A stretch of DNA of 64,000 nt from Candidatus Marinacidobacterales bacterium (GTDB taxonomy: Bacteria > Acidobacteriota > Vicinamibacteria > Marinacidobacterales > DATDRI01), in contig OZ245365.1 in NCBI GenBank assembly GCA_965226495.1, positions 5,984,001-6,048,000 of the forward strand, written 5' to 3'. The notes beneath the pieces are model-generated. The model ran no database searches. It was not told the DNA's origin and saw only the letters and a program-made list of their open reading frames with translations. Numbering within the stretch: position 1 is the first letter of the stretch; each line of letters opens with the position of its first letter. Of the stretch, positions 7,325-20,059 are shown in pieces. The position numbers and the translations under genes are program-made.

Positions 7325-8596
7325 GTGAGCAGGTTTCTACTTTTGTCGGTCCTCCTGACCACCCTCGTAGTCGTCGGCCCAGTCGGTGCTCAGTCGGTGG
7401 CGGAGAGTGAAGATCAAGCGCTCGAACACGCCAAGGAGATCCTCCGTACCACGCCACTCATCGATGGGCACAACGACCTTCCATGGACTATCCGGGAGGA
7501 CTCCGAGGCCCCGCGGGACGTTGAAGCGTACGATATTCGACAAAAAACGGCGGGAGATACCGACCTGCCGAAGCTACGGGCCGGCCAAGTCAGTGCCCAG
7601 TTTTGGTCGGTATGGGTCCCAGGCGAGACCAAGGAAGGCTACGCTAAGGTGCAGCTCGAGCAGATCGACATCGCGCGACGAATGATCGCTCGCTATCCGG
7701 AGAGCCTGACCTTGGCCCTCACTGCCTCGGACATCGAAGCCGCTTTCGAACAAGGGCGCATTGCCTCACTCCTAGGGATGGAAGGCGGTCACGTGATCGA
7801 GAATTCCCTCGGAGCTCTTCGGGCCTTCTATGCTCTGGGCGCTCGCTACATGACCCTGACTCACAACGTCACACTGGATTGGGCCGATGCCGCACTGGAC
7901 GAGCCGAGACACAAGGGTCTCACCCGTTTCGGAAGAGAAGTCATTCGAGAGATGAATCGGCTCGGCATGTTGGTAGACCTCTCGCATGTCACACCCGAGG
8001 TCATGAACGATGCTCTCGATGTCAGTGACGCACCGGTGATTTTTTCGCATTCCTCTTCTCGCGCTTTGGTCGATCATCCCCGAAACGTTCCCGACGCGAT
8101 TCTCGAGCGCATGCCAAAGAACAAAGGCGTAGTGATGGTTAACTTCGTTCCGGGCTTCATATCAAAAGAAGTGGCGGCATGGGAAGCTCCATTGATGAGT
8201 CGTCTCATCGGAACGCTCTCAAGCGGAGAGTACGACCGCATTCGCACGGAGTACGCTGTCGAGCATCCGATGCCCCGCGCGACACTTGGCCAGGTCGCCG
8301 ATCACATCGAGCACGTCGCCAAGATCGCAGGCTTCGATTATGTAGGCATTGGAAGCGACTTCTGGGGAGGAGACGACATGCCGGTAGGCTTGGAGGACGT
8401 CTCCAAGTTTCCTCATCTCTTCGCTGAGCTCATCCGCCGAGGCTGGAGTGAGGCGGATCTCCGAAAGCTAGCGGGAGAGAATTCCCTGCGGGCGTTTCGT
8501 GAAGCCGAGGCGACAGCCAAAAGACTTCGGGAGTCGCGGCCTGCTTCCGCGGCGACAATCGAAGAGCTCGACGGGCCGGGCGAGCCAAAAAGCTGA
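7325..8596 (+). CDS. Membrane dipeptidase (peptidase M19), secreted
   Basis: IDGHNDLP, GMEGGH, VDLSH, FSHSS, VGIGSDF motifs; signal peptide. Confidence 0.92.
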   Translation: MSRFLLLSVLLTTLVVVGPVGAQSVAESEDQALEHAKEILRTTPLIDGHNDLPWTIREDSEAPRDVEAYDIRQKTAGDTDLPKLRAGQVSAQFWSVWVPGETKEGYAKVQLEQIDIARRMIARYPESLTLALTASDIEAAFEQGRIASLLGMEGGHVIENSLGALRAFYALGARYMTLTHNVTLDWADAALDEPRHKGLTRFGREVIREMNRLGMLVDLSHVTPEVMNDALDVSDAPVIFSHSSSRALVDHPRNVPDAILERMPKNKGVVMVNFVPGFISKEVAAWEAPLMSRLIGTLSSGEYDRIRTEYAVEHPMPRATLGQVADHIEHVAKIAGFDYVGIGSDFWGGDDMPVGLEDVSKFPHLFAELIRRGWSEADLRKLAGENSLRAFREAEATAKRLRESRPASAATIEELDGPGEPKS

Positions 8597-8628: not shown

Positions 8629-9975
8629 ATGGACCGCGCAGTTGTTCACGAAGGCCGCGTTGACTCGGTCTGGCTCGCTGGCGAAGCCACGTATGAGCCC
8701 ACCCGAAGACTCACCGCTGTGCGCCGCGCCGATGTTGCCATCATCGGAGGTGGTTTCACCGGCGTGTCCACTGCCTATCACCTGTCGAAGCGACACCCGG
8801 ACAAGCGGATCCTGATCCTGGAGGCCCACGAGCTCGCTTCCGGAGCGAGTGGCCGTAACGGGGGTTTGGTCCTCACCGGGCTACCCGGTCTTCACCCGAA
8901 CGACCCCGATGAGTACCGCGATCATTACGAGATGAGCCGTGCAGGAATTGATCTCATCGAATCGATCATCAAAGAAAATGGACTGGACGTTTCGTTTCGA
9001 CGTGACGGTTGCCTCAAGCTTTTTACCAGCCAGAGACGAGCCGATATCGCCGCCGCCGAGACCGAAAGGCGTCATGCAGCGGGTGTTCCGGAGGAGTTTC
9101 TTGCTGGGGAAGTGTTAGACGATTGGATTCGAATGCAGGGCGTCAAGGGCGCCATACTCGATCCCACTGCTGGGCAGCTGAACGGTGCTCAGTTCGTACG
9201 GAGTTTGCGTCCGATCTTGGCGAACCGGGGTGTCGAGATATACGAGCGAACGCCGGTGATCTCGGTTCAAGAAGGTTCTGAAGTGAGGCTCGAGACACCG
9301 GGAGGCGAGGTCCGGGCGCGAGCGATTGTCTTGGCGACCAATGCCTACACCCCACGCCTCGGCTACTTCAAGAACCAGCTCATTCCCTTACATTCTCACG
9401 TTCTCGCGACCGAACCTCTTACTAGTAGGGAATGGGGTGAGATCGGTTGGCGAAGAGGTTGTGGGTTCATCGATGATTCGGGTCGAACAGCCTATGGTGC
9501 CATGACGGCGGAGGGCCAGATGGTCTTTGGAGGCGGGAGTAACGCTTCCTACGACTATCTTTTTGGTAGCAGGGCGAATCTTTCCGAGAGGAGAGACCAG
9601 GCGACGAACGCCGTTTACAGACAGCTGGGACGATATTTCCCGAAAGCTCGCCTCGTGGGTGTTCGTCAGCGATGGAGCGGAGCGATCGGAATGACCTTCA
9701 ACCGCGTGCCCACGATAGGCGTCCGTGGTTCCCACCGCAACGTCTACTATGCAGTAGGGTACAGCGGGTTCGGAATCACGATGTCGAACCTCGCCGGTAA
9801 GATACTTTGCGATATCTACAGCGATGACGATGATCGCTGGCGCACGTTGCCGTTTTATTGTCGGGAGCCGTCGTGGATTCCGCCCGAGCCGCTCCGTTGG
9901 TTAGGCTACAAGGCCTTCACCGGCTTGACCGGCAACTCGCCCCGCACCTGGCACAAGAAGCGCCTGCGCTCGTAG
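8629..9975 (+). CDS. FAD-dependent oxidoreductase (DAO family, PuuB/OrdL-like)
   Basis: DVAIIGGGFTG, GASGRNGG, VLATNAY, GYSGFG. Confidence 0.85.
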   Translation: MDRAVVHEGRVDSVWLAGEATYEPTRRLTAVRRADVAIIGGGFTGVSTAYHLSKRHPDKRILILEAHELASGASGRNGGLVLTGLPGLHPNDPDEYRDHYEMSRAGIDLIESIIKENGLDVSFRRDGCLKLFTSQRRADIAAAETERRHAAGVPEEFLAGEVLDDWIRMQGVKGAILDPTAGQLNGAQFVRSLRPILANRGVEIYERTPVISVQEGSEVRLETPGGEVRARAIVLATNAYTPRLGYFKNQLIPLHSHVLATEPLTSREWGEIGWRRGCGFIDDSGRTAYGAMTAEGQMVFGGGSNASYDYLFGSRANLSERRDQATNAVYRQLGRYFPKARLVGVRQRWSGAIGMTFNRVPTIGVRGSHRNVYYAVGYSGFGITMSNLAGKILCDIYSDDDDRWRTLPFYCREPSWIPPEPLRWLGYKAFTGLTGNSPRTWHKKRLRS

Positions 9976-9981
9976 CTGCCC

Positions 9982-10407
9982 CTACTCACCAGGTACAACC
10001 TGAATCGACCAAAGAAAGTGGGTGAGCTGGTTGATGCGTTCTTGCGCTTGCGCCTCGGTGTCGGTGGTTTTGAAGGCGTTTCCCCAGACCGGCATGTCTT
10101 TGCTCCCATGGCCGGCCACCTTTTCACGGCCGTCGATTATTTTGCCGACGTCGTCGAATGGGAATTCCCCGTTTCTCTCTCTGATGCGAGTGAGATCCGC
10201 CGGCGCCACTCTCAGATCGTTGGCGAGGGGTCCATCTCCCTTGGCGCCCAAGCCATGGCAGCTCCCACAATAGGTCTTGAAGGACTCACCTCCCGCGGCG
10301 GCCGCCGCGTTGGGCCTTTCTCTTTGCTGTCCAGCGCCCAGCAGAAGGATCGCCAGGAGGCCCGGAACGAGCAGAAGGTCAACAGTCGCAGATCTTGTCT
10401 TTTGCAT
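9982..10407 (-). CDS. Monoheme c-type cytochrome
   Basis: CGSCH heme motif, signal peptide, HGSKDMPVWG. Confidence 0.88.
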   Translation of the reverse strand: MQKTRSATVDLLLVPGLLAILLLGAGQQRERPNAAAAAGGESFKTYCGSCHGLGAKGDGPLANDLRVAPADLTRIRERNGEFPFDDVGKIIDGREKVAGHGSKDMPVWGNAFKTTDTEAQAQERINQLTHFLWSIQVVPGE

Positions 10408-10595
10408 GTTTATTCCTCCTACTAAAGGAATGTTTCCTTTGAAGGGAGGGGCAAGAAATATTCCACCGGAGTCCCAGGATCCTCTTTCTCTATGTGGTTC
10501 TGAAGGTGTACGTTAGCAAGGTAAACCGAGGCTCGCGGGCAGTCCCGTGGCTCGGTTGGGGGATTCGGCGCAGTTTTCTGGGCTAAATAGACCAA

Positions 10596-11738
10596 ATGGC
10601 AAAGACGGGAAGTACGGTCCGATTGCTTCTGGTTGGAGCGGGGCACGCCCACATGGAGGTTATTCGACGCCTCGTAGTGAGCTCTGATTCTTGGGCGCAC
10701 GTCACCGTCGTATCCCAATTCGACAAGCACCACTATTCGGGCATGGTGCCGGGGTATCTCCGGGGGAGCTACCGCGAGGAAGACGTCTCTTTCGACCTGC
10801 CACCCCTGATCACCGCGGCCGGGGGTGAGTTCGTCTGCAAGCGAGCGGTCGGTATCGATCCCGCCCGCCGCGTCGTTCGCTTGGAAGGTGGTGGGGAGAT
10901 CGAGTACGACATCGTTTCCTTCAATGTGGGATCCCGGACCATCGCGGGGGATTCCGCCGGCCCGCATGCGGCGCTCGTGAAACCCATGTCCCGAGCGGTC
11001 GACCTTCATCGCCGCATACTCGAGCTCGCCCATCGGGACGGGAGCAAAACACGGCATGCCGCCGTTGTCGGCGGCGGGTCCGCGGGCGTGGAGATAGCCT
11101 TTGCAATATCCGCGGTGCTCGACGACGCTGGTCGCGATCGGGACGTAAAGATCCTCGAGGGTTCGGACGGGATTCTCCGGGGGTACTCGGAGCGCTTTCG
11201 AGAACGCGCCGTAAGTATCCTGAGGCACAAGAAAATCAACGTGCGTACGGGCCGGAGAGTCGTCAAGGTTCATCCGGACACGGTCGAGCTCGAGGACGGT
11301 TCTCGCGACGAGAGTGACCTGACCGTGTGGGTCACCGGACCAGCCGGCCCTGGGATCTTCGAAGGGTCGAAGCTCCAGCTCGACGGTCGCGGGTTCCTTC
11401 TCGTCGACGACTCCCTTCGCTCGTTGAGCGATCCCAATGTGCTTGGCGTCGGCGACTGTGTCACGTTGGCTAACTATCCGGCGACACCGAAGGCGGGGGT
11501 CTATGCGGTAAGAGAGGCCCCGATCCTTTGGGAGAGCCTTCTTTCGGCCGTCGGCCAGGGGGCTCGGCCTCGCTACCGACCCCAAGAAGGTTTTCTTTCT
11601 ATCCTTAATACTGCCGACGGAAAGGCCTTGTTGCGATATAAGTCCTACATCACGCATAGTCTTCCCGCCTGGTGGCTCAAGGATTGGATCGATCGGCGCT
11701 TTGTGGCGAAGTACCAAAGTTTGGTTGGAGCGAAATAG
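10596..11738 (+). CDS. FAD-dependent pyridine nucleotide-disulfide oxidoreductase of the type found N-terminal to SelD (stand-alone)
   Basis: LLLVGAGHAH, YSGMVPG, VVGGGSAGVE, GDC, PKAGVYAVR, WLKDWIDRRF are characteristic of the domain fused to selenophosphate synthetase in many bacteria. Confidence 0.8.
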   Translation: MAKTGSTVRLLLVGAGHAHMEVIRRLVVSSDSWAHVTVVSQFDKHHYSGMVPGYLRGSYREEDVSFDLPPLITAAGGEFVCKRAVGIDPARRVVRLEGGGEIEYDIVSFNVGSRTIAGDSAGPHAALVKPMSRAVDLHRRILELAHRDGSKTRHAAVVGGGSAGVEIAFAISAVLDDAGRDRDVKILEGSDGILRGYSERFRERAVSILRHKKINVRTGRRVVKVHPDTVELEDGSRDESDLTVWVTGPAGPGIFEGSKLQLDGRGFLLVDDSLRSLSDPNVLGVGDCVTLANYPATPKAGVYAVREAPILWESLLSAVGQGARPRYRPQEGFLSILNTADGKALLRYKSYITHSLPAWWLKDWIDRRFVAKYQSLVGAK

Positions 11739-11740
11739 TC

Positions 11741-12439
11741 ATGTATTTTTGCCATTCTGACGAGATGTGGCGAAAGTTTCCGCAGCTCGTTCCTGGGGCG
11801 ATGGTTATTACCGGAGTTCACGCCGATGCCGATGTGAGTCTCGCGCCTTGGTTCGACCGCGCTCGGGAACGCTTGGAGGTCGGCCCGGAGTCCCAGTTGC
11901 CGGAGATCGTCGCTTGGCGCCGCGCCTACGCGCAGATGGGAATGAAGCCCACGCAGTACCTCTCCGCCGCAGAGGCACTTCTGCGTCGCTTCCGGACGGA
12001 GGGCGATTTGCCTCTTCTTCATCCTCTGGTCGATCTTTGTAACGCGGTCTCGCTAGCCTTCGCGCTACCGGTTGCGGTCTTCGATCTCGGGAAGGTGGAT
12101 CGGTATCTCGAGGTGCGCCATTCGAAGGGTGTCGAGCAGTACCTCACCTTCGGCGGCGAGATAGAGACACCTCCTCAGGGTGAGGTGATCTTCGCCGATG
12201 CTTCGAATCAGGCTCATGCTCGCCGGTGGACGTTTCGCCAGAGCAAGAGATCCGCGATGGGCCCGGGGACGACGACGGCGCTCGTTGTTGCCGAGGGATT
12301 GCATGAGACGGCCTTCCGGGATGTTCCCGCACTACTTGATGCGCTTGATGAGGCGGTCACAAAGTCTTGGGCTGCTCCGCACCAGCGGGCCGTTTTGAGC
12401 GTCGAGGGTCCTCGCTTGGAGTTTGCTCTCGATCTCTGA
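11741..12439 (+). CDS. Stand-alone B3/4 (PheRS-beta editing-like) domain protein
   Basis: AWRRAYAQMG.KPTQY.SAAEALLRR, HPLVDLCNAVSL, ARRWTFRQ; ATG 11741 lies 2 nt after the upstream stop. Confidence 0.85.
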   Translation: MYFCHSDEMWRKFPQLVPGAMVITGVHADADVSLAPWFDRARERLEVGPESQLPEIVAWRRAYAQMGMKPTQYLSAAEALLRRFRTEGDLPLLHPLVDLCNAVSLAFALPVAVFDLGKVDRYLEVRHSKGVEQYLTFGGEIETPPQGEVIFADASNQAHARRWTFRQSKRSAMGPGTTTALVVAEGLHETAFRDVPALLDALDEAVTKSWAAPHQRAVLSVEGPRLEFALDL

Positions 12440-12458
12440 TATTTAAAAGGAGGAAACC

Positions 12459-13274
12459 ATGCCGACGGTCCGATTGAGACGCGTGTCCGAGTATCCCGAG
12501 AAGATGCAGAAGCGTTTCGAGTTGGCTAAGGAATGGTTCAACTATGATTTCGAGACGCCACCGGCGATGAGTCTGGTTATGGCGTGGGACCCTGGGTTCG
12601 GCGCTCCCCATGGCCGCGCCATGAAGCGCGCCGCCGAACCGGGAGAGTTCACGCGCGCCGAAAAGGAGATGGTGGCGTCCGTCGTTAGCGGCGTGAACGC
12701 CTGCGAGTATTGAGTGAAGGCGCATACTGCAGCCGGGAAGCTGCAAGGAATGAAAGAAGACGCGCTCTGGTACGAGGCGGCGAACACGGTGGGAATCACG
12801 AACGCGCTGAACGTGGTAACGGATTCTCTGTCTCCGGACGCGAGCACGCACCTTATCGAGCCGGTGGACGAGAGGATCGATGACAAGAGAACGGCCTCGT
12901 GTTTCGCGAATATCCGAGACTTCTATGACAGTGAGAGTGTGCCGCTCCCGTTTCGGATCGCGGCGCATGACCCTGGCTATCTGGGCGATCTTTGGGAGAC
13001 GGTCCGGCACGCATTCAGCGATAGACGGCTCACGAGACGCTTCAAGGAGGCGCTGGCATTCGCAGTGTCGGTCACGACGAGCTCTCGATTCGGCACCGCC
13101 TTTCACCTCGCGGAGATGCGCCGGCTAGGAGTAGGAAACAAAGGGGTCATGGAAGTTTTGGGCATGACCCAGATGTTCTCTAGCTATACGAAGATTGCGG
13201 ATACGCTTCAGCTCGATCCGGACATGGGTGACATCGCGCCTATCGACCCGTCTCCCGTTCCCGATCCGAGCTGA
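12459..13274 (+). CDS. Selenoprotein: two-domain AhpD/carboxymuconolactone decarboxylase-like protein, 271 aa, Sec at TGA 12711-12713
   Basis: Track ORFs 12459-12713 and 12714-13274 are contiguous and in frame. Read-through gives KEMVASVVSGVNAC-E-Y-U-VKAH, the AhpD CxxC-x3-H motif with U as the second residue. RBS AGGAGG before 12459. Confidence 0.88.
12728..12745 (+). promoter_or_regulatory. Candidate bacterial SECIS hairpin for TGA 12711
   Basis: Perfect 6-bp stem TGCAGC/GCTGCA around loop CGGGAA, starting about 20 nt after the UGA, with G early in the loop. Confidence 0.65.
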
Positions 13275-13288
13275 CTCGAGGAGGAATC

Positions 13289-13948
13289 ATGAAGAAGTGG
13301 TTGATTGGAATCGCCATAGTTGCCGGCGTGGCCGCGCTCGCTAGCCAGGGCTACTACTATGCTCTCAAGAAGGCATGGGTCCTCTACAACGAGTACGACA
13401 TCCGCAGCGAGGGTACGCTGCGGGTGGGCGATCTGGCTCCGGACCTGGAGCTCGCGAGTGTGGACGGTGGAACCCAAAAGTTATCCGATCTGTTCAAGCA
13501 AAAACCGCTGGTCCTCATTTTTGGAAGCTACACCTGACCGCCTTTTCGAGCCAGTTTGGCCGAAGTCGAAGAGCTGAGGGAGAAGTTTCGAAGCGACGCC
13601 GAGTTCGCCATCGTTTACATCAAAGAAGCTCATCCTGGGGACGAGTGGCAGCTAGATAGCAACATCGAGGGGGAGATCGTCTATAACCAACCGAACTCTT
13701 TCGAGGCGCGGATGGATCTCGCCAAGACCTTCATCGATAAGATGGAAGTGAAGACACCGACGCTCGTCGACGATATCCAGAATACGGCGATGGCTTGCTA
13801 CGCAGCGTGGCCGGAGAGGCTCTACGTCATCGACACCGATGGCACGATCGACTACAAGGGGGACATGGGACCCTTCGGATTCAAGCCGGAGCAGTTGGAA
13901 GGCTACCTCGAGGAGCGATTCGCGGGAAGGGGCGCGACAGACCGCTAG
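13289..13948 (+). CDS. Selenoprotein: iodothyronine deiodinase-like thioredoxin-fold protein, 219 aa, Sec at TGA 13535-13537
   Basis: ORFs 13289-13537 and 13556-13948 share a frame. Read-through gives PLVLIFGSYT-U-PPFRASL...VYIKEAHPGDEW...YAAWPERLY...GPFGF, matching deiodinase FGSxTUPPF/YIxEAH motifs. N-terminal membrane anchor. Confidence 0.92.
13542..13573 (+). promoter_or_regulatory. Candidate bacterial SECIS hairpin for TGA 13535
   Basis: Upper stem GCCA/TGGC with a G-initiated loop at 13554; lower stem CTTTTCGA/TCGAAGAG (one G-U pair). Confidence 0.6.
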
Positions 13949-14985
13949 TGGCAACTCCCACTCAAACGTTCGATGCCGCGAAGGTCAAAGAACTGGCCCT
14001 CGAGCTGGGGGCCGATCTCGTCGGCATCGCCAGCGCGAAGACGCTCAACGCGTTCCCTCCCGATCCGAAGTATCCGCAGACGCCGGAGCGCGTTTCTCCT
14101 CACTGCAAGAGCGTCGTCGTCGTCGTACAACGGATCCCGGTCGGTGCCTTCCGCTGCAAGTCCAACGTGCCGGTTCAGTACTTGGATATGCTCGTGCTCC
14201 GGAAGATGGACAAGGTCGCTTATCGGTTGGCCGAGCATCTGGAGCGCGCCGGCCATCCGTCCTTCGTGACCGCGGCCCAAGAGACCGACTGGAACTATAA
14301 AAAAGCAAGCTACGGACGGCTGAGCACGCGCCACCTCGGCATCGAAGCGGGGCTCGGCACATTCGGTCTAGAAGTGAACATCTTGACGCCGGAGTACGGG
14401 CCTCGGGTCTATCTCACTGGAGTTCTGACCGAGCTCGAGCTCGAGCCCGACGCACCCATGACTGAGCAGGTGTGTATCGGCGAGTCCTGCAGCCGTTGCC
14501 TCTATAGCTGCCCAACGGATGCCATCGGGCATTTCGACATCGATAAGCGTGAATGCGCGAAGGAGGCGCAAGAGTTTGGTTTCGTCACAATCCTCAAGTA
14601 TTTCGAGCGGTTCGTCGCGGCGCCCCGAGAAGCCAAGGCGGCGATGCTGAAGTCGCGTGACCTCTACGGTTTCTGGCAGGGGTTGCTCCGGGTGGTTGGA
14701 TCCTTCGGGGATTGTCCGAGGTGCCTCGCTGTCTGCCCGGTCGGAGATGACTACTACGCGCATTTGGTCGAGATACAAAAGTTCATTCCCGAGACGACCG
14801 ACGAGAAGATCGCCAAGGCTAAGAAGTTCAAGGCGGCTCGCAAGCGTGGCGATGCCGTCGAGGGGCTCAACGAATGGAACGCCCGATGGGTAGGGCCGGA
14901 AGGTTACCAAGGTCTCGTGGCACGGCACGTCAAGAAATTCCGCGAGAAACAAAAAGAACTCCTCGCGCGGTCTGGGAAGAGATAG
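13948..14985 (+). CDS. QueG / reductive dehalogenase-like cobalamin and 2x[4Fe-4S] protein (paralog 1)
   Basis: GTG 13948 overlaps the upstream TAG (TAGTG). GADLVGIA, HLGIEAGLGTFG, TPEYGPRV, CIGESCSRCLYSCP, CPRCLAVCP. Confidence 0.82.
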   Translation: MATPTQTFDAAKVKELALELGADLVGIASAKTLNAFPPDPKYPQTPERVSPHCKSVVVVVQRIPVGAFRCKSNVPVQYLDMLVLRKMDKVAYRLAEHLERAGHPSFVTAAQETDWNYKKASYGRLSTRHLGIEAGLGTFGLEVNILTPEYGPRVYLTGVLTELELEPDAPMTEQVCIGESCSRCLYSCPTDAIGHFDIDKRECAKEAQEFGFVTILKYFERFVAAPREAKAAMLKSRDLYGFWQGLLRVVGSFGDCPRCLAVCPVGDDYYAHLVEIQKFIPETTDEKIAKAKKFKAARKRGDAVEGLNEWNARWVGPEGYQGLVARHVKKFREKQKELLARSGKR

Positions 14986-14995
14986 TTTCCGCATC

Positions 14996-16012
14996 ATGGC
15001 CGAGATCTACCAAGCACATCTGACTGCCCAGCAGATCAAGGCGAAGGCACGGGAGCTCGGCGCCGACCTAGTCGGAATCGCCGACGGTAAGATGATAGAG
15101 GAACACCCTCCCGAGCCGAGCGATCCGCGGCGACCATCCGATATCACCGACTATGACGGTGAGCGCGTCATCGTTATGGCGAAGAAGTATACGAGTGGCA
15201 CCACCCGTATTCTTCCTTGGAACGACCGTCACAAGTACTACAACGACGAGCTGACGTTGACGCTCTTGGAAGAGGCTTCGCTCGAGCTCGTTTACTGGCT
15301 CGAGGACAACGGCTACCCGTCCATCATCATTCCTCCCACCCACGTCGATCCCTGGCGCTACCAGGACAAACCGGAGGAGCACCAAAAGACGTTACTGTCG
15401 CTAACCCATGCAGCGGTCGAGGCGGGCTTGGGAACCCTCGGTCTAAACTTGCAACTGCTTACGCCCGAGTACGGACCGCGGGTGATCCTCACCGCGGTAC
15501 TGTGCTCCGTGGATTGCGAAGCAGACAGTCGCATCGAAGAAGCGCTCTGCCTCGGGCCCGAGTGCGGGCGGTGTTTGGAAACCTGCCCCGGAGACGTCGT
15601 CCAGCACTGGAATCGCGATTGGGAAGGGTGCGATCGCTACCGATCGCCGCACGGCTTCGCCCAGTTGACCGACCACCTCGTCACCATCCTGGACGAGGCG
15701 GACGTTGCCAAACAGAAGGAGATGGTCCGTTCGGAGGAAAGCTTCAACCTTTGGCAGAGCATTTTGCGAGGGGCCGGTGTCATTACCGGTTGCCGCCGGT
15801 GCCAGGACGTCTGCCCGGTGGGCGAAGACTACGCCGTCCTGGAGGATGCTCTAGAACGGATCCCCGAGAGCACGCCCGAGAAGAAGACACACCTCCTCGA
15901 GATGATGGAGGTCGAAAAAAGGGAAGTCCCCCCTGGCGGCTACCAAGCCCAACGCCGTTGGATCGGGGAGGTTACGTACCGCAAGCCCTGGCCTAAAGCC
16001 TTCGATGTCTGA
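14996..16012 (+). CDS. QueG / reductive dehalogenase-like cobalamin and 2x[4Fe-4S] protein (paralog 2)
   Basis: GADLVGIA, HAAVEAGLGTLG, TPEYGPRV, CLGPECGRCLETCP, GCRRCQDVCP. Confidence 0.82.
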   Translation: MAEIYQAHLTAQQIKAKARELGADLVGIADGKMIEEHPPEPSDPRRPSDITDYDGERVIVMAKKYTSGTTRILPWNDRHKYYNDELTLTLLEEASLELVYWLEDNGYPSIIIPPTHVDPWRYQDKPEEHQKTLLSLTHAAVEAGLGTLGLNLQLLTPEYGPRVILTAVLCSVDCEADSRIEEALCLGPECGRCLETCPGDVVQHWNRDWEGCDRYRSPHGFAQLTDHLVTILDEADVAKQKEMVRSEESFNLWQSILRGAGVITGCRRCQDVCPVGEDYAVLEDALERIPESTPEKKTHLLEMMEVEKREVPPGGYQAQRRWIGEVTYRKPWPKAFDV

Positions 16013-17114
16013 CGCAATCCGCCTGCTTTGTTCGATCGTCGCAGCCTCCCTTCTTTCATCGACTACAACGTCCGCGCAAACCGTGCTCCGAACCCGGAAC
16101 GTCGTTCTGGTTACCGCCGACGGCCTGCGGCACCAGGAGCTCTTCGGTGGACTGGACCGCGCTCTTCTCGAGGGCGAACGAAAGAGTGGAATCGAGGATC
16201 CCGAGGCCCTTTCGGCACGCTTTTGGCGCCACTCAACACGGGACCGTCGCGAACGGTTGATGCCCTTTTTCTGGAAGACCCTTGCACCCCGGGGGATCGT
16301 TCTTGGGAGTCGCGCCGACGGGGCCACGGTCTCGGTGACCAATCCTCATCGCGTCTCCTATCCCTGCTATGCGGAGATACTCACCGGTCAAGTACAGCCA
16401 AAAGTAACCGGCAACATCCCGATCCAGATTCCCCACGAGACGGTGCTCGAGTTCGTCCGACGAGAGCTCGAGCTGGAGACGACCCAAGTCGCAGCCTTCA
16501 CTTCATGGAATCACTTTCCTTATATCGTCGAGCACCAGCCCGGGTCCATCACCGTAAACGCTGGAGGGCCGTTGCCCGAGGGCATGCAAACCGAGGAGAT
16601 CCGTCGCCTTGTATCGCTCGAAAAGAGAACGCTGTCTCCATGGAGCTCGGTGCGGCAGAACGTCTTCACCGAAGGCCTAGCCTTCGCTTACCTCAGGGAG
16701 TTCCAGCCGCGCTTTCTTTTTCTCGCGCTCGATGAGACCGACGAGTGGGCCCACGGGCGGCGCTACGACCGTACCCTCCAGGCGATCCGAAACTTCGATG
16801 AGACGCTTCGGTTGTTATGGACGCTCCTCCAGTCGATGGAGGCTTATCGCGACAAGACGACGTTCGTGATCACGACCGACCATGGACGGGGCCGCACGCC
16901 CGCCGATTGGACGTCACACGGCAAAGACATCCCGGGGGCCGAGGAGATTTGGATCGCGATCATCGGCCCCGATACAACTGCCCAGGGGGTCGTCCCCAAC
17001 CATCCCCCTTTTAAGCAGACCCAGATCGCCGCCACGATTCTCAAGTTCTTCGGGCTGGATCCAGGAAAGTTCAACCCTCGAGCCGGGGAGCCGGTTTCGC
17101 TCGCGTTACCCTGA
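16005..17114 (+). CDS. Secreted alkaline phosphatase-superfamily metalloenzyme (phosphoglyceromutase-like)
   Basis: NVVLVTADGLR, SYPxYxEILTG, ETDEWAH, TTDHGRG; signal peptide; start overlaps the upstream gene. Confidence 0.8.
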   Translation: MSDAIRLLCSIVAASLLSSTTTSAQTVLRTRNVVLVTADGLRHQELFGGLDRALLEGERKSGIEDPEALSARFWRHSTRDRRERLMPFFWKTLAPRGIVLGSRADGATVSVTNPHRVSYPCYAEILTGQVQPKVTGNIPIQIPHETVLEFVRRELELETTQVAAFTSWNHFPYIVEHQPGSITVNAGGPLPEGMQTEEIRRLVSLEKRTLSPWSSVRQNVFTEGLAFAYLREFQPRFLFLALDETDEWAHGRRYDRTLQAIRNFDETLRLLWTLLQSMEAYRDKTTFVITTDHGRGRTPADWTSHGKDIPGAEEIWIAIIGPDTTAQGVVPNHPPFKQTQIAATILKFFGLDPGKFNPRAGEPVSLALP

Positions 17115-17233
17115 GCCTGCCGCTAGATCTCCGAGCGAGGACCGGGTACAGGATTTGATCTACGTCACAGTCATCGCCACCGTTCGCGTGGTAGAACTGA
17201 ACTGCGGGTTTCTCGAACCCGCAGGGGGTTCCA

Positions 17234-17887
17234 ATGATGAGAATCGATCACGCCTCGGTCCTCTTTCAAAACTGGACGTTCTCGAAAGGCCTGAGTGAGG
17301 TCCAAGAAACCTTTACATCGATCGACGAGCTATTCGACCTTTGTGTCGTTAAGGAGATGTCCCCGGAGCGGGTCCTTCTGTCCGGAAAGGATGAGACCGG
17401 TCGCGAACACTTTCTTACGCTACTTTACGGAGTGATGCGCGTCGCTCCAAGCGATTCGAACGGGGAGCAAATCACCGACGATTCGAGTCCACCACCGAAG
17501 GCGGATCCGGCCCAACTCGACGTTCATTCAAAGGGTTCGTTGCACGAACTCGAGCAAGCGGTACTCGGCGCTATGCGCCCCGGTCCAGATTCACCGGCTG
17601 AAGAACCGAGTTACCTAGACGAGATTCGGGAGCTCTGCCACGAACGAGCTTGGGACGCGACGGTGAGACTATCGGATTTGGCCCAATCGCTAAGTAGCCT
17701 GGTCAACGGTATCACTTGGGCGCAAAAGGTCGTTGAGTTCCGCGGGGCGCAAGATGGCGAGGGATCGGAACGTACGGAGTTGGCCACCATGCTCGAGGGC
17801 GGGGTCGGGAGAATAGGACATATGCGGAGCATGCTGGCCGTTTTCGACCGGCAGCTCATTGCTCTGGCTGGTCGTCTCGCGAAATAG
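17234..17887 (+). CDS. Hypothetical protein
   Basis: 217-aa ORF filling the gap; no motif recognised. Confidence 0.5.
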   Translation: MMRIDHASVLFQNWTFSKGLSEVQETFTSIDELFDLCVVKEMSPERVLLSGKDETGREHFLTLLYGVMRVAPSDSNGEQITDDSSPPPKADPAQLDVHSKGSLHELEQAVLGAMRPGPDSPAEEPSYLDEIRELCHERAWDATVRLSDLAQSLSSLVNGITWAQKVVEFRGAQDGEGSERTELATMLEGGVGRIGHMRSMLAVFDRQLIALAGRLAK

Positions 17888-17911
17888 TCTCAAAAACCTT
17901 AGGCAGGACGT

Positions 17912-19549
17912 CTACTCCTCTATTGATTTTCTTTCCGACTCCTTCTGTCGCAGTTCCACACGGCGGATCTTGCCGGTTTGGGTGCGAGGAAGCTCGGATA
18001 CAAACTCGACTTCGCGCGGATATTTGTATGGCGCGAGCTGCTCTCGCACATGCTTTTGGAGCTCCTCGGTGAGCTCGGCACCAGCGTCGAAGCTCTTGTT
18101 CAGGACGACGAAGGCTTTCACGATGTGCCCGCGAAGCTCGTCCGGCGAAGCGACGACCGCCGTTTCCGCTACCGCCGCGTGTTCCATTAGAACGTTCTCC
18201 ACCTCCGGGCCGGCGACGTTGTAGCCGGAAGTGATAATTAGATCGTCGCCGCGACATTGGTAGTGGAAGTAACCTTCTGAGTCGCGCGTGTAGATGTCCC
18301 CGGGTAGGTTCCAACCTTCCCGGACGTATCGCTTCTGACGCTCCGGCTTGCCCCAGTACTTGCAACCGGTGGGTCCGGAAACGGCGAGCATCCCCGGTTT
18401 TCCGTCGGGAAGATCCTGCATTTTTTCGTCCACCACTCTTGCCTGATAACCCGGAACGACTTCGCCCGTTGATCCGGCTCGTGCGCGACCCGGCTGAGAG
18501 GAAATGAAGATGTGGAACAATTCGGTGCTCCCGATCCCGTCGAGGAGCTCCATGTCGAACATCTCTTTCCACTGCTCGAACGTCACCGCAGGGAGAGTCT
18601 CCCCAGCACTCACCGGCGCCCGAAGGCTCGAGAGATCGAACCGTTGTTTTACGTTCTCGACCTGCATCATGAGTTTGTAGGAAGTCGGCGCGCAGAACGC
18701 GCCGGTCGCGCGGTATCGAGTGATGGTATCCAACATCGTTTCTGGAGTGAACCGCTCGATGAGACATGTCGCGGCCCCGAATCGGAGCGGATAGACCAAC
18801 AACCCGCCTAGTCCGAAGGTGAAGGCGAGAGGCGGATGACCGGTGAAAATATCTCCCGGCTCCGGGGCGAGGACTTTCTTGGCATAGGTGTCCGCGGAGG
18901 CGAGTACGTCGCTCGGGAAGTGGACGCAGCCTTTGGGAACACCGGTGCTGCCCGATGTGTAGGCGATGAGCGCCGGCTCGTCCCGGCCGATCTCCACCGA
19001 GGGCACCGGTTCGTACGCGGCGAGCTCCTCGAAGGTCGGTGAGCCTGGTGAGCCTGACGTAGAGTCTCCCGACACAACAATCTTCTCGATGGTGTCGAGC
19101 TGTGGTCGCGCTTTCTCCATCTCTTCGTAGAGGTCTGAAGAGACCAAGGCGACTTTTACTCGAGAGTCGTTTGAAACGTATTCCAACTCCCGCGCGCGAA
19201 GCAGTGGCATGGTCGCTAGCACGACCGCGCCCAACTTCTGAAGGGCGAACCAGGCGACGACGAATTCGGGACGATTGGGGAAGCGAAGCAAAACTCGATC
19301 GGTCGGCTCGACGCCTATGCTACGAAGCCCCCCCGCGAGCCGACTCGCCCTCTCGTCGAGCTCCCGGTAGCTGATGATCTCGTCCCGGTAGTAGATCGCA
19401 GGCATTTCGGCGAGCCCGGAATCCATCGCACGGCGCAGAAGCTCGTCGGCGAGGTTGAGTCGTGAAGGAATTTCGACAGTGACCCCATGCGCCCGGCGTG
19501 GCGGCATGAGATCCGCCGCGGGAAGGTAATCGGTTAGGTCGAAGGCCAA
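17912..19549 (-). CDS. Aryl-CoA ligase (2-aminobenzoate/benzoate-CoA ligase-like)
   Basis: YTSGSTGVPKG, PPLAFTFGLGG, SAGETLP, DGIGSTE, GPTGCKY, LPRTQTGKI. Confidence 0.85.
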   Translation of the reverse strand: MAFDLTDYLPAADLMPPRRAHGVTVEIPSRLNLADELLRRAMDSGLAEMPAIYYRDEIISYRELDERASRLAGGLRSIGVEPTDRVLLRFPNRPEFVVAWFALQKLGAVVLATMPLLRARELEYVSNDSRVKVALVSSDLYEEMEKARPQLDTIEKIVVSGDSTSGSPGSPTFEELAAYEPVPSVEIGRDEPALIAYTSGSTGVPKGCVHFPSDVLASADTYAKKVLAPEPGDIFTGHPPLAFTFGLGGLLVYPLRFGAATCLIERFTPETMLDTITRYRATGAFCAPTSYKLMMQVENVKQRFDLSSLRAPVSAGETLPAVTFEQWKEMFDMELLDGIGSTELFHIFISSQPGRARAGSTGEVVPGYQARVVDEKMQDLPDGKPGMLAVSGPTGCKYWGKPERQKRYVREGWNLPGDIYTRDSEGYFHYQCRGDDLIITSGYNVAGPEVENVLMEHAAVAETAVVASPDELRGHIVKAFVVLNKSFDAGAELTEELQKHVREQLAPYKYPREVEFVSELPRTQTGKIRRVELRQKESERKSIEE

Positions 19550-19570
19550 AGGTTAGGTGGCCCCCCGTTG

Positions 19571-20059
19571 TCAAGAAGCCGGAGTTGGCTGGATCGGTGG
19601 CGGCGGAGCACTTGTGCCGCCGGCAATTTGCGGTCCCAAGAAAAATGTCAAGATCGAGAGAATCTCCCCACTGTCTCCGAGATAGAGAACGATGACCCGA
19701 CCCTCGAGAAAGAAATGAGGCGTGGCGGGCCACGGGATGAACTCGCCATTGATCGTCACTCCGTCTTCGGAGATAGCGGAGGCGATCGAGATAGCGGTGC
19801 CGGGTCCGATCACCTCGAAGACGAGGACGTCGGCTCCCTGAACGTCGAAGTGCAGAGCAGGGATAGGGAGGAAACCGAAATTTTCCTCGCTGCCCAGCTC
19901 GACGGCGACGCCGTTGGCGAAAAGCTGCTCGGCGAAGTCTGCCAAATCAAAGACTTCCTCGCCGGGAGAGATGGCCTGACCCGTGCTGTTGGTATCGCAC
20001 GCGGCTAGGGCCATGTTCAAGACCAGGAGGAAACCAAGCGGGATGAGGACCTTTTTCAT
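19571..20059 (-). CDS. Putative lipoprotein
   Basis: MKKVLIPLGFLLVLNMALAAC lipobox; start reset to ATG 20059. Confidence 0.7.
   Translation of the reverse strand: MKKVLIPLGFLLVLNMALAACDTNSTGQAISPGEEVFDLADFAEQLFANGVAVELGSEENFGFLPIPALHFDVQGADVLVFEVIGPGTAISIASAISEDGVTINGEFIPWPATPHFFLEGRVIVLYLGDSGEILSILTFFLGPQIAGGTSAPPPPIQPTPAS

Follow-up and report, generated by a model that had tools for sequence, protein, structure and literature searches.

The DNA analysed here, a 64,000-nucleotide window from a Candidatus Marinacidobacterales genome, holds a string of seven genes (g1 to g7) that is real, carries two in-frame UGA codons which very probably encode selenocysteine (Sec), and is probably a young, genus-specific mosaic of separately inherited units, not one conserved dehalogenation operon. 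An initial annotation had proposed a selenium- and cobalamin-dependent dehalogenation operon; the gene families, the Sec codons and the Sec machinery behind that proposal hold up, and the single joint pathway is not supported. The features of the string and its flanks are as follows.

9982 to 10407, - strand: cytochrome c gene, divergent from g1 (Pfam Cytochrome_CBB3)
10596 to 11738, + strand: g1, FAD/NAD(P)H pyridine-nucleotide-disulfide oxidoreductase, 380 aa (Pyr_redox_2, E 1.6e-27)
11741 to 12439, + strand: g2, stand-alone B3/4-domain protein, 232 aa from ATG (PF03483, B3_4, E 3.5e-21)
12459 to 13274, + strand: g3, predicted AhpD-like (CMD) selenoprotein, 271 aa (CMD/AhpD domain, residues 57-102, across the UGA)
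12711 to 12713, + strand: in-frame UGA of g3 (putative Sec85, motif C-E-Y-U; ORF translation, unchanged in the three-study contigs)
12728 to 12745, + strand: SECIS-like hairpin of g3 (6-bp stem, loop CGGGAA)
13289 to 13948, + strand: g4, predicted deiodinase-family selenoprotein, 219 aa (T4_deiodinase, PF00837, E 3.2e-36, residues 24-209, across the UGA)
13535 to 13537, + strand: in-frame UGA of g4 (putative Sec83, motif G-S-Y-T-U-P-P-F; ORF translation, kept in relatives, unchanged in the three-study contigs)
13544 to 13565, + strand: SECIS-like hairpin of g4 (9 pairs, bulged A13549, loop GUU)
13948 to 14985, + strand: g5, QueG/RdhA-fold Fe-S protein, first subunit of a pair (weak QueG and RDH matches, 4Fe-4S motifs)
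14996 to 16012, + strand: g6, paralogous second subunit (weak QueG and RDH matches, 4Fe-4S motifs)
16005 to 17114, + strand: g7, alkaline-phosphatase-superfamily enzyme (Metalloenzyme, Phosphodiest and Sulfatase matches)
17912 to 19549, - strand: benzoate-CoA ligase family gene, convergent (TIGR02262, 389.9 bits, cut-off 375.25)

The string runs from 10596 to 17114 with all seven genes on the + strand, and the ORF coordinates bear out the gaps of 19 nt or less, or overlaps, first described for it: from g1 to g7 the spacings are +2, +19, +14, -1, +10 and -8 nt, and the stop and start of g4 and g5 overlap as TAGTG. Contigs from runs of three studies, one of which may be the window's own source, span 10000-17859 and 10316-19600 with 0-2 differences, none of them in either TGA, so the string did not arise from misassembly. 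The operon-like spacing, the TAGTG overlap and a search that found no intergenic terminator within the string together make co-transcription and co-regulation of the seven genes plausible in the window's genus, a point that counts against the mosaic. Pfam and TIGRFAM profile searches agree with all seven family names given initially.

Both UGAs are very probably Sec codons, since the genome has the machinery to decode them, the TGAs are kept in relatives, hairpins follow them and purifying selection acts on both sides. A check for selA, selB, selC and selD had been called for, and the machinery is complete, with selA (570.1 bits), selB (377.7 bits), selD (332.6 bits, itself with one in-frame TGA) and a tRNA-Sec. 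Pfam domains run across both codons, synonymous changes predominate on either side of each, and the genome's own paralogues of g3 and g4 have the motifs CDYU and GSITU, each with a strong hairpin. For g3, L012, L013 and L017 retain the TGA, and the codons after it differ from those of L013 by 47 synonymous and 14 non-synonymous changes; its hairpin begins 17 nt after the first UGA base and alone is not significant (z 0.16), while that of the CDYU paralogue is stronger and lies at a similar distance. For g4, 25 loci retain the sequence GS[YFCI]T-TGA-PPF, one of them on a Dehalococcoidia contig at 43% identity, and a TGA lies inside 34 of the 37 deiodinase-like matches in 251 Acidobacteriota genomes. 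The g4 hairpin begins 9 nt after the first UGA base, and the 30-nt stretch at +8 folds better than other windows of its own gene: among 20 loci of relatives it belongs to the most stable 10% of such windows in 13 and to the most stable 25% in 18, while the copy analysed here stands at the 12th percentile. That the TGAs are instead real stops, produced by split genes, pseudogenes or sequencing errors, is very hard to credit: gene callers do terminate or begin genes at them, and the hairpin energies of single sequences are not significant, but the TGA column is conserved across distant relatives, and the selection on both sides, the domains that span the codons, the complete machinery and the identical TGA sequence in contigs of three studies all speak against it. 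The fragmentation by gene callers that was foreseen does hold for g3, whose product from the window is stored only as a 186-aa post-UGA piece (P0273); among the matches listed, 120 of 120 g3 homologues are likewise stored as post-UGA fragments of 172-238 aa.

The pair g5-g6 is a separate, widespread module and is predicted to form a heterodimer. The two proteins are 33-36% identical, each has eight invariant Cys in two Fe-S motifs, and g6 follows g5 in all 66 metagenome loci with room for it; a natural fusion (P0123) joins an N-terminal half 54% identical to g5 with a C-terminal half 50% identical to g6. The modelled complex reaches an ipSAE of 0.69 (best control 0.00), a level that 58 of 80 solved complexes attained, compared with 2 of 110 mismatched pairs, and to which resemblance to solved RdhA dimers may contribute; across runs, at least 91% of contacts are common and the partner pLDDT is at least 87. 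In Foldseek searches with the AF2 model of g5 (pLDDT 93.7, pTM 0.91), 46 matches reach E <= 0.001, every one of them a chain of QueG or RdhA, and CblC comes next at about 3e-3. Homologues carry the name 'epoxyqueuosine reductase QueG' in some sources, and QueG chains give the best Foldseek matches of g5; still, there is only a slight chance that g5 and g6 serve as ordinary epoxyqueuosine reductases of tRNA. They score 57.7 and 38.9 bits against a TIGR00276 cut-off of 200, the genome's true QueG (376.6 bits) lies at C1:4836544, no QueG_DUF1730 match appears in a Pfam search of either protein, the TM-scores of g5 to QueG chains are only 0.44-0.47, and the genes that constantly accompany the pair encode CoA ligases, not tRNAs. 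By hhalign, g5 aligns with the genome's own RDH protein over 212 columns (probability 98.2) and with its QueG over 81. An ordinary QueG identity, named at the outset as a result that would refute the proposal, thus does not apply.

The usual neighbours of g5-g6 are acyl/aryl-CoA ligases and ABC importers, as seen in 80 metagenome loci from which the context was taken: a PaaK-like ligase comes after g6 in 28 of 43 loci, and among the 40 loci of at least 6 kb, an AMP-ligase of some kind occurs in all 40 and a LIV-type binding protein in 16. The ligase partner of the pair here is likely the convergent benzoate-CoA ligase gene; such a gene comes directly after g6 in L013/G251, and the sister genome G252 has a truncated PaaK-like ligase ORF, a remnant, between g4 and g5.

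The remaining genes have histories of their own. The flavoprotein g1 is a near-member of TIGR03169 (299.6 bits, cut-off 310, full profile length matched) and lies about 297 kb from selD; in another genus (G253) its homologue (67% identity) adjoins a cytochrome c homologue (69%) without g2-g6, which makes cytochrome c the only neighbour to stay with g1 there. The Atlas neighbours of g2 fall in clusters of B3/B4 domain proteins about 235-244 aa long. An alternative GTG start of g2, further upstream at 11672, would overlap g1. The g7 protein, with a signal-peptide-like N-terminus, is found at this place in the window genome only, being absent there from G251 and G252, and its homologues (48-58% identity) stand alone elsewhere in relatives.

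Conserved synteny had been set in advance as the test that could refute one pathway, and in a DNA search of 40 relatives g1-g6 were contiguous in only two, G251 and G252, which belong to the window's genus and lack g7 at this place; in the sister family, g2 and g4 matched on different contigs. At the protein level, homologues of g1, g2, g4 and g7 are each alone in their loci, none of g1, g2, g3, g5, g6 and g7 occurs within +-7 kb of 22 other deiodinase-like loci, just one of 47 g5-g6 loci with room has g3/g4 upstream (that one a 94%-identical close relative), and g7 follows g5-g6 in none of 39 metagenome loci. Among the 251 Acidobacteriota genomes, g4 occurs in 34 (including three unpublished records, G024, G049 and G152), g2 in 18, g3 in 3 and g5 in 2; of the 33 other g4 genomes, 32 lack g5, and all but G134, with weak matches to both, lack g3. 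Within the genus itself, G252 has g3 split by a Mutator-family transposase while g4-g6 remain, and an AbiE toxin-antitoxin pair after g6. Because the genes travel separately in other bacteria and their order is kept in one genus only, the claim of one joint dehalogenation pathway is not supported. The companion claim, that no such operon has been described, stands as far as our literature search reaches, which found no published operon with this gene combination.

In the mosaic that we favour, one unit would be g3 with g4, putative selenol/thiol redox proteins judged by their sequences, with one possibility being that a peroxiredoxin-like g4 is re-reduced by the AhpD-like g3, with g1 perhaps admitting electrons from NAD(P)H. 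Against such coupling, g3 is absent from nearly all g4-bearing Acidobacteriota genomes of the sample, and g4, with a hydrophobic N-terminal segment at about residues 4-19, may be exported or membrane-anchored while g3 has no signal sequence visible on reading. Animal deiodinases also have an N-terminal hydrophobic segment. The other unit would be g5 with g6, on the models a heterodimer with the cobalamin/[4Fe-4S] 'class III B12' fold, which may reduce or remove a substituent of a CoA-activated, probably aromatic, acid, supplied here perhaps by the convergent benzoate-CoA ligase. The B3/4 protein g2 and the putatively secreted alkaline-phosphatase-type g7 would be further independent genes.

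It is unlikely that the genus instead runs one halo-aromatic pathway, in which electrons would pass from NAD(P)H through g1 to g3 as Sec reductant and on to g4 as Sec dehalogenase, alongside a B12-type g5/g6 dehalogenase. Such a pathway would suit the tight spacing and single orientation of g1-g7, the match of the g4 catalytic core to Dio3, the RdhA fold of g5, whose Y78 aligns with a Tyr of the genome's RDH protein, and the adjacent ligase gene, which could activate halobenzoates; to our knowledge, moreover, reductive dehalogenation is the only known chemistry of the deiodinase family, which counts against the mosaic. Yet the order is not conserved past one genus and each gene is found alone elsewhere, g4 genomes mostly lack g5 and g3, the disrupted g3 of G252 sits beside persisting g4-g6, g4 has Y81, P134 and M194 in place of Dio3 Cys168, His219 and Arg275, and g5 and g6 reach only 39.8 and 27.5 bits on the RDH profile TIGR02486 (cut-off 160.35).

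A narrower link, with g2, g1 and g5/g6 forming an electron-supply and accessory set for a B12-type reductase and the selenoprotein genes as passengers, is just as improbable. The three families recur side by side at a second locus of this genome (G000:C1:887195-890650), which encodes a B3/4 protein, a member of the RdhA family (TIGR02486, 170.2 bits, higher than the same cut-off) and a pyridine-nucleotide-disulfide oxidoreductase; G252 retains this adjacency and G272 part of it. The paralogues are old, g2 sharing 34% identity with the second B3/4 protein and g5 25-30% with RDH, so this is not a recent duplication. Chance is hardly the cause, and the arrangement suggests that g1, g2 and g5/g6 may be functionally tied, which counts against the mosaic. 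Against the narrower link, an RdhA-like or g1-like gene lies within +-6 kb in none of 17 other Acidobacteriota B3/4 loci and none of five same-order g2 loci, the second-locus genes are dispersed in G258, G270, G284 and G286, a g1 or g2 homologue occurs in none of the 80 g5-g6 metagenome loci, and our literature search did not find B3/4 and reductive dehalogenase together.

Like AhpD, g3 has a CMD domain with the signature E-x11-C-x2-(C/U)-x3-H (E70, C82, U85 and H89) and passes TIGR00778 ahpD_dom (47.1, cut-off 27.8). It differs from AhpD in being 271 aa long and carrying a second domain, about 150 aa, at its C-terminus, in its TIGR00777 ahpD score (19.5 bits, cut-off 191.95) and in having no adjacent AhpC gene. 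This family and the deiodinase-like one have both been published since 2005. Passages of the Sargasso Sea selenoproteome paper (PMC1088965) list the CXXU motif for AhpD-like selenoproteins and propose a different, redox function for the bacterial deiodinase-like proteins.

The g4 protein resembles mouse Dio3 (4tr3, E 9.7e-26) and Dio2 (9h48, E 3.3e-20) in its thioredoxin-fold domain, its putative Sec in S-x-T-U-P-P-F and its segment E-A-H-P-x-D-x-W, and it resembles bacterial deiodinase-like selenoproteins in the bacterial SECIS-like hairpin directly after the UGA. Its S80, T82, U83, P84 and P85 align with Dio3 Ser167, Thr169, Sec170 and Pro171-172, and its Y110, E113, H115, W120 and R140 with Tyr197, Glu200, His202, Trp207 and Arg225. 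With residue roles in the Dio3 catalytic core and hormone site taken from excerpts of PMC7506546, the alignment indicates that g4 keeps the catalytic core of iodothyronine deiodinases without the residues that hold thyroid hormone, the three replaced positions being those given above. The protein also lies below the NF038285 cut-off (189.3, cut-off 250), covering only the C-terminal half of that profile. As far as we know, thyroid hormone is not expected in bacteria.

The g5-g6 pair appears closer to RdhA than to QueG. With RdhA structures (PceA 4UQU, the RDH complex 8Q4H, NpRdhA 4RAS/6ZXU) g5 shares a Foldseek probability of 1.00 at TM 0.43-0.50 and a fold made of a cobalamin-binding nitroreductase-like core and a two-[4Fe-4S] ferredoxin domain, and the motifs GADLVGIA and AGLG...LTPE.GPR are common to the pair and RdhA. 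Unlike RdhA, the pair scores far below the family cut-off, consists of two paralogous subunits in fixed order that are sometimes fused, has CoA ligases as constant partners, and shows neither an RdhB-like gene nor a fused flavin reductase domain in Pfam and tblastn scans of its neighbourhood. With QueG (5D08, 5T8Y, 5D6S) g5 shares the class III B12 fold and redox-chain motifs (best Foldseek E 5e-10), and both subunits differ from it in having no detected DUF1730 or C-terminal QueG domain. The metagenome loci are matched by the window in g5 followed by g6 with a CoA ligase in the neighbourhood; they differ from it in their PaaK-like ligase, absent here (the best match in this genome is 28-30% identical and lies elsewhere), whereas the ligase of the window is convergent, has g7 and a hypothetical gene between it and g6, and belongs to a neighbourhood with two predicted selenoprotein genes directly upstream of the pair.

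Seven genes follow one another on the forward strand of the window, which was read both with and without TGA taken as selenocysteine (Sec, U). They are g1, a flavoprotein; g2, a B3/4 protein; g3, an AhpD-like protein; g4, a deiodinase-like protein; g5 and g6, both QueG/RdhA-like; and g7, of the alkaline-phosphatase superfamily. The initial annotation had described such a co-oriented string and had named a family for each gene; the reading frames bear out the string, and Pfam and NCBIfam confirmed every name. The features used below are as follows.

10596-17114 (+): seven genes, g1 to g7
12711-12713 (+): in-frame TGA of g3, putative Sec position U85
13535-13537 (+): in-frame TGA of g4, putative Sec position U83
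17234-17887: ORF of 217 aa between g7 and a ligase gene, with no Pfam or NCBIfam match

The successive spacings from g1 to g7 are +2, +19, +14, -1, +10 and -8 nt. The whole string was recovered in contigs from runs of three studies, one of which may be the source of the window, with 0-2 differences and none at the TGAs. The nearest public genomes are metagenome-assembled genomes (MAGs) titled Candidatus Marinacidobacterales (Acidobacteriota). The g1 product is a pyridine-nucleotide-disulfide oxidoreductase nearest to TIGR03169, the oxidoreductase family N-terminal to SelD, at 299.6 bits against a cut-off of 310 and thus below threshold; selD lies about 297 kb away, neither fused nor adjacent. 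Both g2, a stand-alone B3/4 protein, and g7 rest on their Pfam and NCBIfam matches, and ESM Atlas look-ups for the two added nothing beyond the Pfam families. The 217-aa ORF has a homologue with frameshifts in G252, a MAG of the same genus (64-68% identity), and none in G251, a second genome of that genus.

The dehalogenation proposal presupposed Sec decoding, and selA, selB, selC and selD were all found. In the single-contig genome (contig C1), selA, selB and selD score above curated cut-offs, and ARAGORN called two tRNA-SeC genes 2.4 kb apart (C1:173953-174050 and 176351-176447). Because the selD match itself (C1:5697778-5698710, locus L001) holds one in-frame TGA, SelD is probably a selenoprotein here as well. 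The CMD/AhpD domain match of g3 runs across its TGA (C-E-Y-U), as does the T4_deiodinase match of g4 over residues 24-209 (G-S-Y-T-U-P-P-F). The g4 TGA column is kept in five of five genome_contigs relatives, the most distant being a Dehalococcoidia contig at 43% identity, and the motif GS[YFCI]T-TGA-PPF is kept in 25 loci. Among 251 sampled Acidobacteriota genomes, deiodinase-family genes occur in 34 and nearly always contain a Sec codon, the TGA lying inside 34 of 37 deiodinase-like matches; three of these genomes (G024, G049 and G152) are unpublished records. The g3 TGA is kept in the relatives examined, all of them close. Codon differences are mostly synonymous on both sides of each TGA: 16 synonymous versus 4 non-synonymous before and 47 versus 14 after it in g3, and 21 versus 8 before and 21 versus 15 after it in g4. 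The genome also holds a paralogue of each gene: an AhpD-like gene reading C-D-Y-U (C1:5468126-5468878, reverse strand) and, not adjacent to it, a deiodinase-like gene reading G-S-I-T-U-P-F (C1:4273311-4273739, forward strand), each with a strong hairpin past its TGA. The conserved TGA column, the homology past the codon, the synonymous bias, the paralogues and the decoding machinery together make it very likely that both UGAs are read as Sec, as had been proposed.

The RNA downstream of the codons was considered separately. Hairpins of differing sequence begin 9-14 nt past the TGA in the g4 family, and the 30-nt stretch at +8 ranks among the most stable tenth of same-gene windows at 13 of 20 loci and among the most stable quarter at 18 of 20, in a within-gene control whose loci are related, so that a binomial p-value overstates the effect. 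The hairpin of the window's own g4 stands at the 12th percentile of its own gene, and single-sequence folding past the two UGAs of the window gave z values of 0.16 and 0.90, neither significant. RNAalifold returned no consensus structure for the 20 post-UGA stretches, the cause being an offset of 1-2 nt in hairpin position from one group to another. An Rfam scan of positions 9000-19000 at E <= 10 gave two chance-level matches and no SECIS family. The g3 product of the window is stored as a 186-aa piece following the UGA, and all 120 of the g3 relatives listed are likewise stored as pieces of 172-238 aa covering the post-UGA part; gene callers therefore fragment this family, as the initial annotation had anticipated. 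The selenoprotein assignments of g3 and g4 are well supported, and standard annotation splits both genes.

The g5-g6 pair has a much wider distribution. More than 120 relatives of g5 share 74-79% identity with it, the few named ones belonging to Alphaproteobacteria, SAR324 and other Pseudomonadota, and an exhaustive search gave 2602 representatives at E <= 0.001, 89 of them at E <= 1e-30. In a sample of 80 metagenome loci, counted where a locus had room, g5 is followed by g6 in 66 of 66. A PaaK-like ligase comes after g6 in 28 of 43; all 40 loci of at least 6 kb have an AMP-forming ligase of some kind, and 16 of 40 a LIV-type binding protein; g3/g4 lie upstream in one of 47, a 94%-identical relative, and g7 lies downstream in none of 39. 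In P0123 (670 aa) the two proteins of the pair are naturally fused; identity is 54% between its N-terminal half and g5, and 50% between its C-terminal half and g6. Single-chain fusions of g5-type and g6-type parts are found in P0123 and P0124 (670-678 aa) and in P0189, P0219, P0230, P0241, P0254 and P0258 (760-794 aa). There are also longer multi-module relatives with two to four matched stretches, and P0189 and P0219 have a weak QueG_DUF1730 match. At several loci (L021:4919-5911, L026:8109-9113 and L035:11275-12201) a third, remoter QueG/RdhA-like paralogue of about 308-334 aa comes after the PaaK-like ligase, with more ligases, a Rieske ring-hydroxylating oxygenase and a LIV-type ABC transporter nearby. 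A model of the g5-g6 complex scored 0.69 against 0.00 for the best control. Of 80 solved complexes, 58 attained that mark, as did 2 of 110 mismatched pairs; likeness to solved RdhA dimers may raise the score. At least 91% of contacts were common between runs, and partner pLDDT was at least 87. From the 66 loci, the fusions and this model, g5 and g6 are predicted to form one enzyme.

What kind of enzyme this would be was judged against both families in its name. The two subunits are paralogues of each other, with weak matches to QueG and RDH models. Each subunit has eight invariant Cys in the arrangement C-x4-C-x2-C-x3-CP ... C ... C-x2-C-x3-CP, motifs of the two-[4Fe-4S] type. The AF2 model of g5 reached pLDDT 93.7 with a deeper alignment (a shallow one gave 45.9, and no search rests on that model), and each of the 46 Foldseek matches with E <= 0.001 is a chain of QueG or RdhA (TM 0.43-0.50), CblC coming next at about 3e-3. 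By hhalign, the g5 family aligns over 212 columns (probability 98.2) with the genome's own RdhA-family protein, and g6 over 121, against only 81 columns between the g5 family and the genome's true QueG (376.6 bits, C1:4836544). The invariant Y78 of g5 falls on a Tyr of that RdhA-family protein and may correspond to the conserved active-site Tyr (QueG Y101, PceA Y246). For QueG, both subunits fall below the TIGR00276 cut-off and do not fit the DUF1730 plus C-terminal domain layout or the sole-copy pattern; for RdhA, they score 39.8 and 27.5 bits against the 160.35 required by TIGR02486, and neither has a Pfam match to PF13486. Both have the class III B12/[4Fe-4S] features, a nitroreductase-like, predicted B12-binding core and two Cys motifs, as that fold is described in the accessible text of PMC4646009, and the genome has a cobalamin riboswitch. 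Given the scores below curated cut-offs, the 212 against 81 columns and the separate true QueG, g5 and g6 classify by sequence as neither QueG nor RdhA but as a branch of their own, with two subunits, in the class III B12 fold; the possibility that they are ordinary epoxyqueuosine reductases, named in advance as one that would undo the dehalogenation proposal, falls away. A convergent gene of the benzoate-CoA ligase family (TIGR02262, 389.9 bits, above 375.25) lies 1.9 kb from g6 and is likely its partner here; the genome has no close PaaK-like gene. The pair may reduce a CoA-activated aromatic acid, and its substrate is a question for aromatic-acid metabolism.

The initial annotation had itself named unconserved gene order as a result that would refute its single pathway, and outside the genus the order is not kept. 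Among 40 relatives searched at DNA level, g1-g6 are contiguous only in G251 and G252; in G251 the convergent ligase follows g6 directly, and neither genome has g7 at that place. In G253, of the same family, a cytochrome c gene and g1 alone remain together, and in the sister family g2 and g4 are on separate contigs. Protein searches of fetched stretches found homologues of g2, g1, g7 and g4 each solitary, and none of the other six genes occurs within 7 kb on either side of the deiodinase-like gene at 22 other loci. That gene has no widespread conserved neighbour, the largest neighbour cluster covering 4 of 23 loci; MsrA, a glycosyltransferase, an M19 peptidase and transposases were sighted once each. 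Across an even sample of 251 Acidobacteriota genomes, g4-like genes occur in 34, g2-like in 18, g3-like in 3 and g5-like in 2, and they are adjacent only in the genome of the window. The region is plastic, as G252 makes plain: a Mutator-family transposase interrupts g3 (L012:6430-7722, reverse strand), a truncated PaaK-like AMP-binding ORF sits between g4 and g5, in frame into g5 (L012:8717-10915, forward strand), and an AbiEi/AbiEii toxin-antitoxin pair follows g6 (L012:12080-13834, forward strand). The same MAG has frameshifts in g3 and in the g4 relative L015. Both in the window (7325-8596) and at a distant Acidobacteriota locus (L014:5868-7040), the deiodinase-like gene has a Peptidase_M19 dipeptidase gene a few kb upstream; this may be coincidental or left over from an earlier gene arrangement.

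The idea of one pathway is kept alive by the operon-like spacing and by a second locus with three of the same families, outside the window:

C1:887195-890650 (= L127:2196-5651): second three-family cluster
stand-alone B3/4 protein, 242 aa
RDH-family protein, 421 aa, TIGR02486 170.2 bits, above 160.35
convergent RclA/MerA-like pyridine-nucleotide-disulfide oxidoreductase, two overlapping ORFs of 316 and 192 aa, possibly split by a frameshift

These genes are old paralogues of those in the window. They remain adjacent in G252 and, in part, in G272, and are dispersed in G258, G270, G284 and G286; none of 17 + 5 other B3/4 loci shows B3/4 next to RdhA. That B3/4, RdhA-fold and flavoprotein genes should lie side by side twice, independently, within one genus is unlikely to be accidental; we rate a narrower functional link among these three families as improbable. 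One metatranscriptome library yielded four short contigs from the string, two of which match exactly. The first, 11583-11768, extends just 29 nt on the side of g2, and the second, 14902-15095, spans the g5/g6 junction. Neither one continuous transcript nor expression of the remaining genes follows from them, and they may stem from DNA carry-over. The sole promoter-like site found in a scan lies on the opposite strand, and all terminator-like sites fall within genes.

The Sec genes and the families of the original proposal thus stand, and its single dehalogenation pathway is not supported. Computation establishes the family memberships, conserved Sec codons, Fe-S motifs, g5 fold, predicted complex, ligase association and lack of conserved synteny. 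In its fullest form the proposal would be a hybrid selenium-plus-cobalamin dehalogenation route of this genus for natural halo-aromatic acids as CoA esters. A Sec deiodinase-type enzyme and a B12-type RdhA-fold heterodimer would have been recruited into one transcription unit, completed by an NAD(P)H flavoprotein dedicated to it, by a Sec-AhpD protein as reductant and by an accessory B3/4 protein, with the second locus as a sister system. We consider this route improbable; if true, it would be the first pathway joining selenium- and cobalamin-based dehalogenation. On the favoured reading, g3 and g4 would be selenol-based redox proteins and might make up an AhpD-like/peroxiredoxin-like couple that g1 feeds.

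Known relatives bear on both selenoproteins. The g3 product scores 47.1 against TIGR00778, the AhpD core domain (cut-off 27.8), and 19.5 against the 191.95 bits of the AhpD equivalog TIGR00777. Its residues E70 and C82-E-Y-U85-V-K-A-H89 fit the AhpD signature CxxC(U)xxxH; no AhpC partner gene was found in the scanned stretch of the window. The g4 product passes PF00837 (125.3 bits, cut-off 27), also matches AhpC-TSA (E 1.5e-11), and reaches 189.3 of the 250 bits required by NF038285 (deiodinase_rel), over profile positions 177-338 of 347 only; the hydrophobic stretch at its N-terminus may serve as a signal peptide or as an anchor. A literature search of main texts found no characterised bacterial deiodinase-like enzyme. 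Against the catalytic domain of mouse Dio3 (4tr3, E 9.7e-26), g4 keeps the S-x-T-U-P-P-F active site and the Glu/His/Trp segment, and with them the core residues Ser167, Thr169, Sec170, Pro171-172, Tyr197, Glu200, His202, Trp207 and Arg225, with roles as given in the accessible text of PMC7506546. However, Cys168, His219 and Arg275, tied there to thyronine binding and turnover, align with Y81, P134 and M194, and g4 is therefore a deiodinase-family member with a different pocket.

Neither selenoprotein family is new: the accessible part of the Sargasso Sea selenoproteome (PMC1088965) lists AhpD-like (27 sequences, CXXU motif), CMD-domain and deiodinase-like selenoproteins (4 sequences, Pfam00837) with bacterial SECIS elements, and suggests for the bacterial deiodinase-like proteins a redox role other than hormone deiodination. 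A literature search found no published account of a paired QueG/RdhA-like enzyme with a ligase, and the word 'ligase' occurs zero times in the accessible text of PMC12219181. The novelty rests, not with the selenoproteins, but with a reductase pair coupled to ligases that has yet to be described, and with the unusual surroundings it has here. The pair is a widespread two-subunit relative of the B12-dependent dehalogenases, nearly always tied to CoA ligases.
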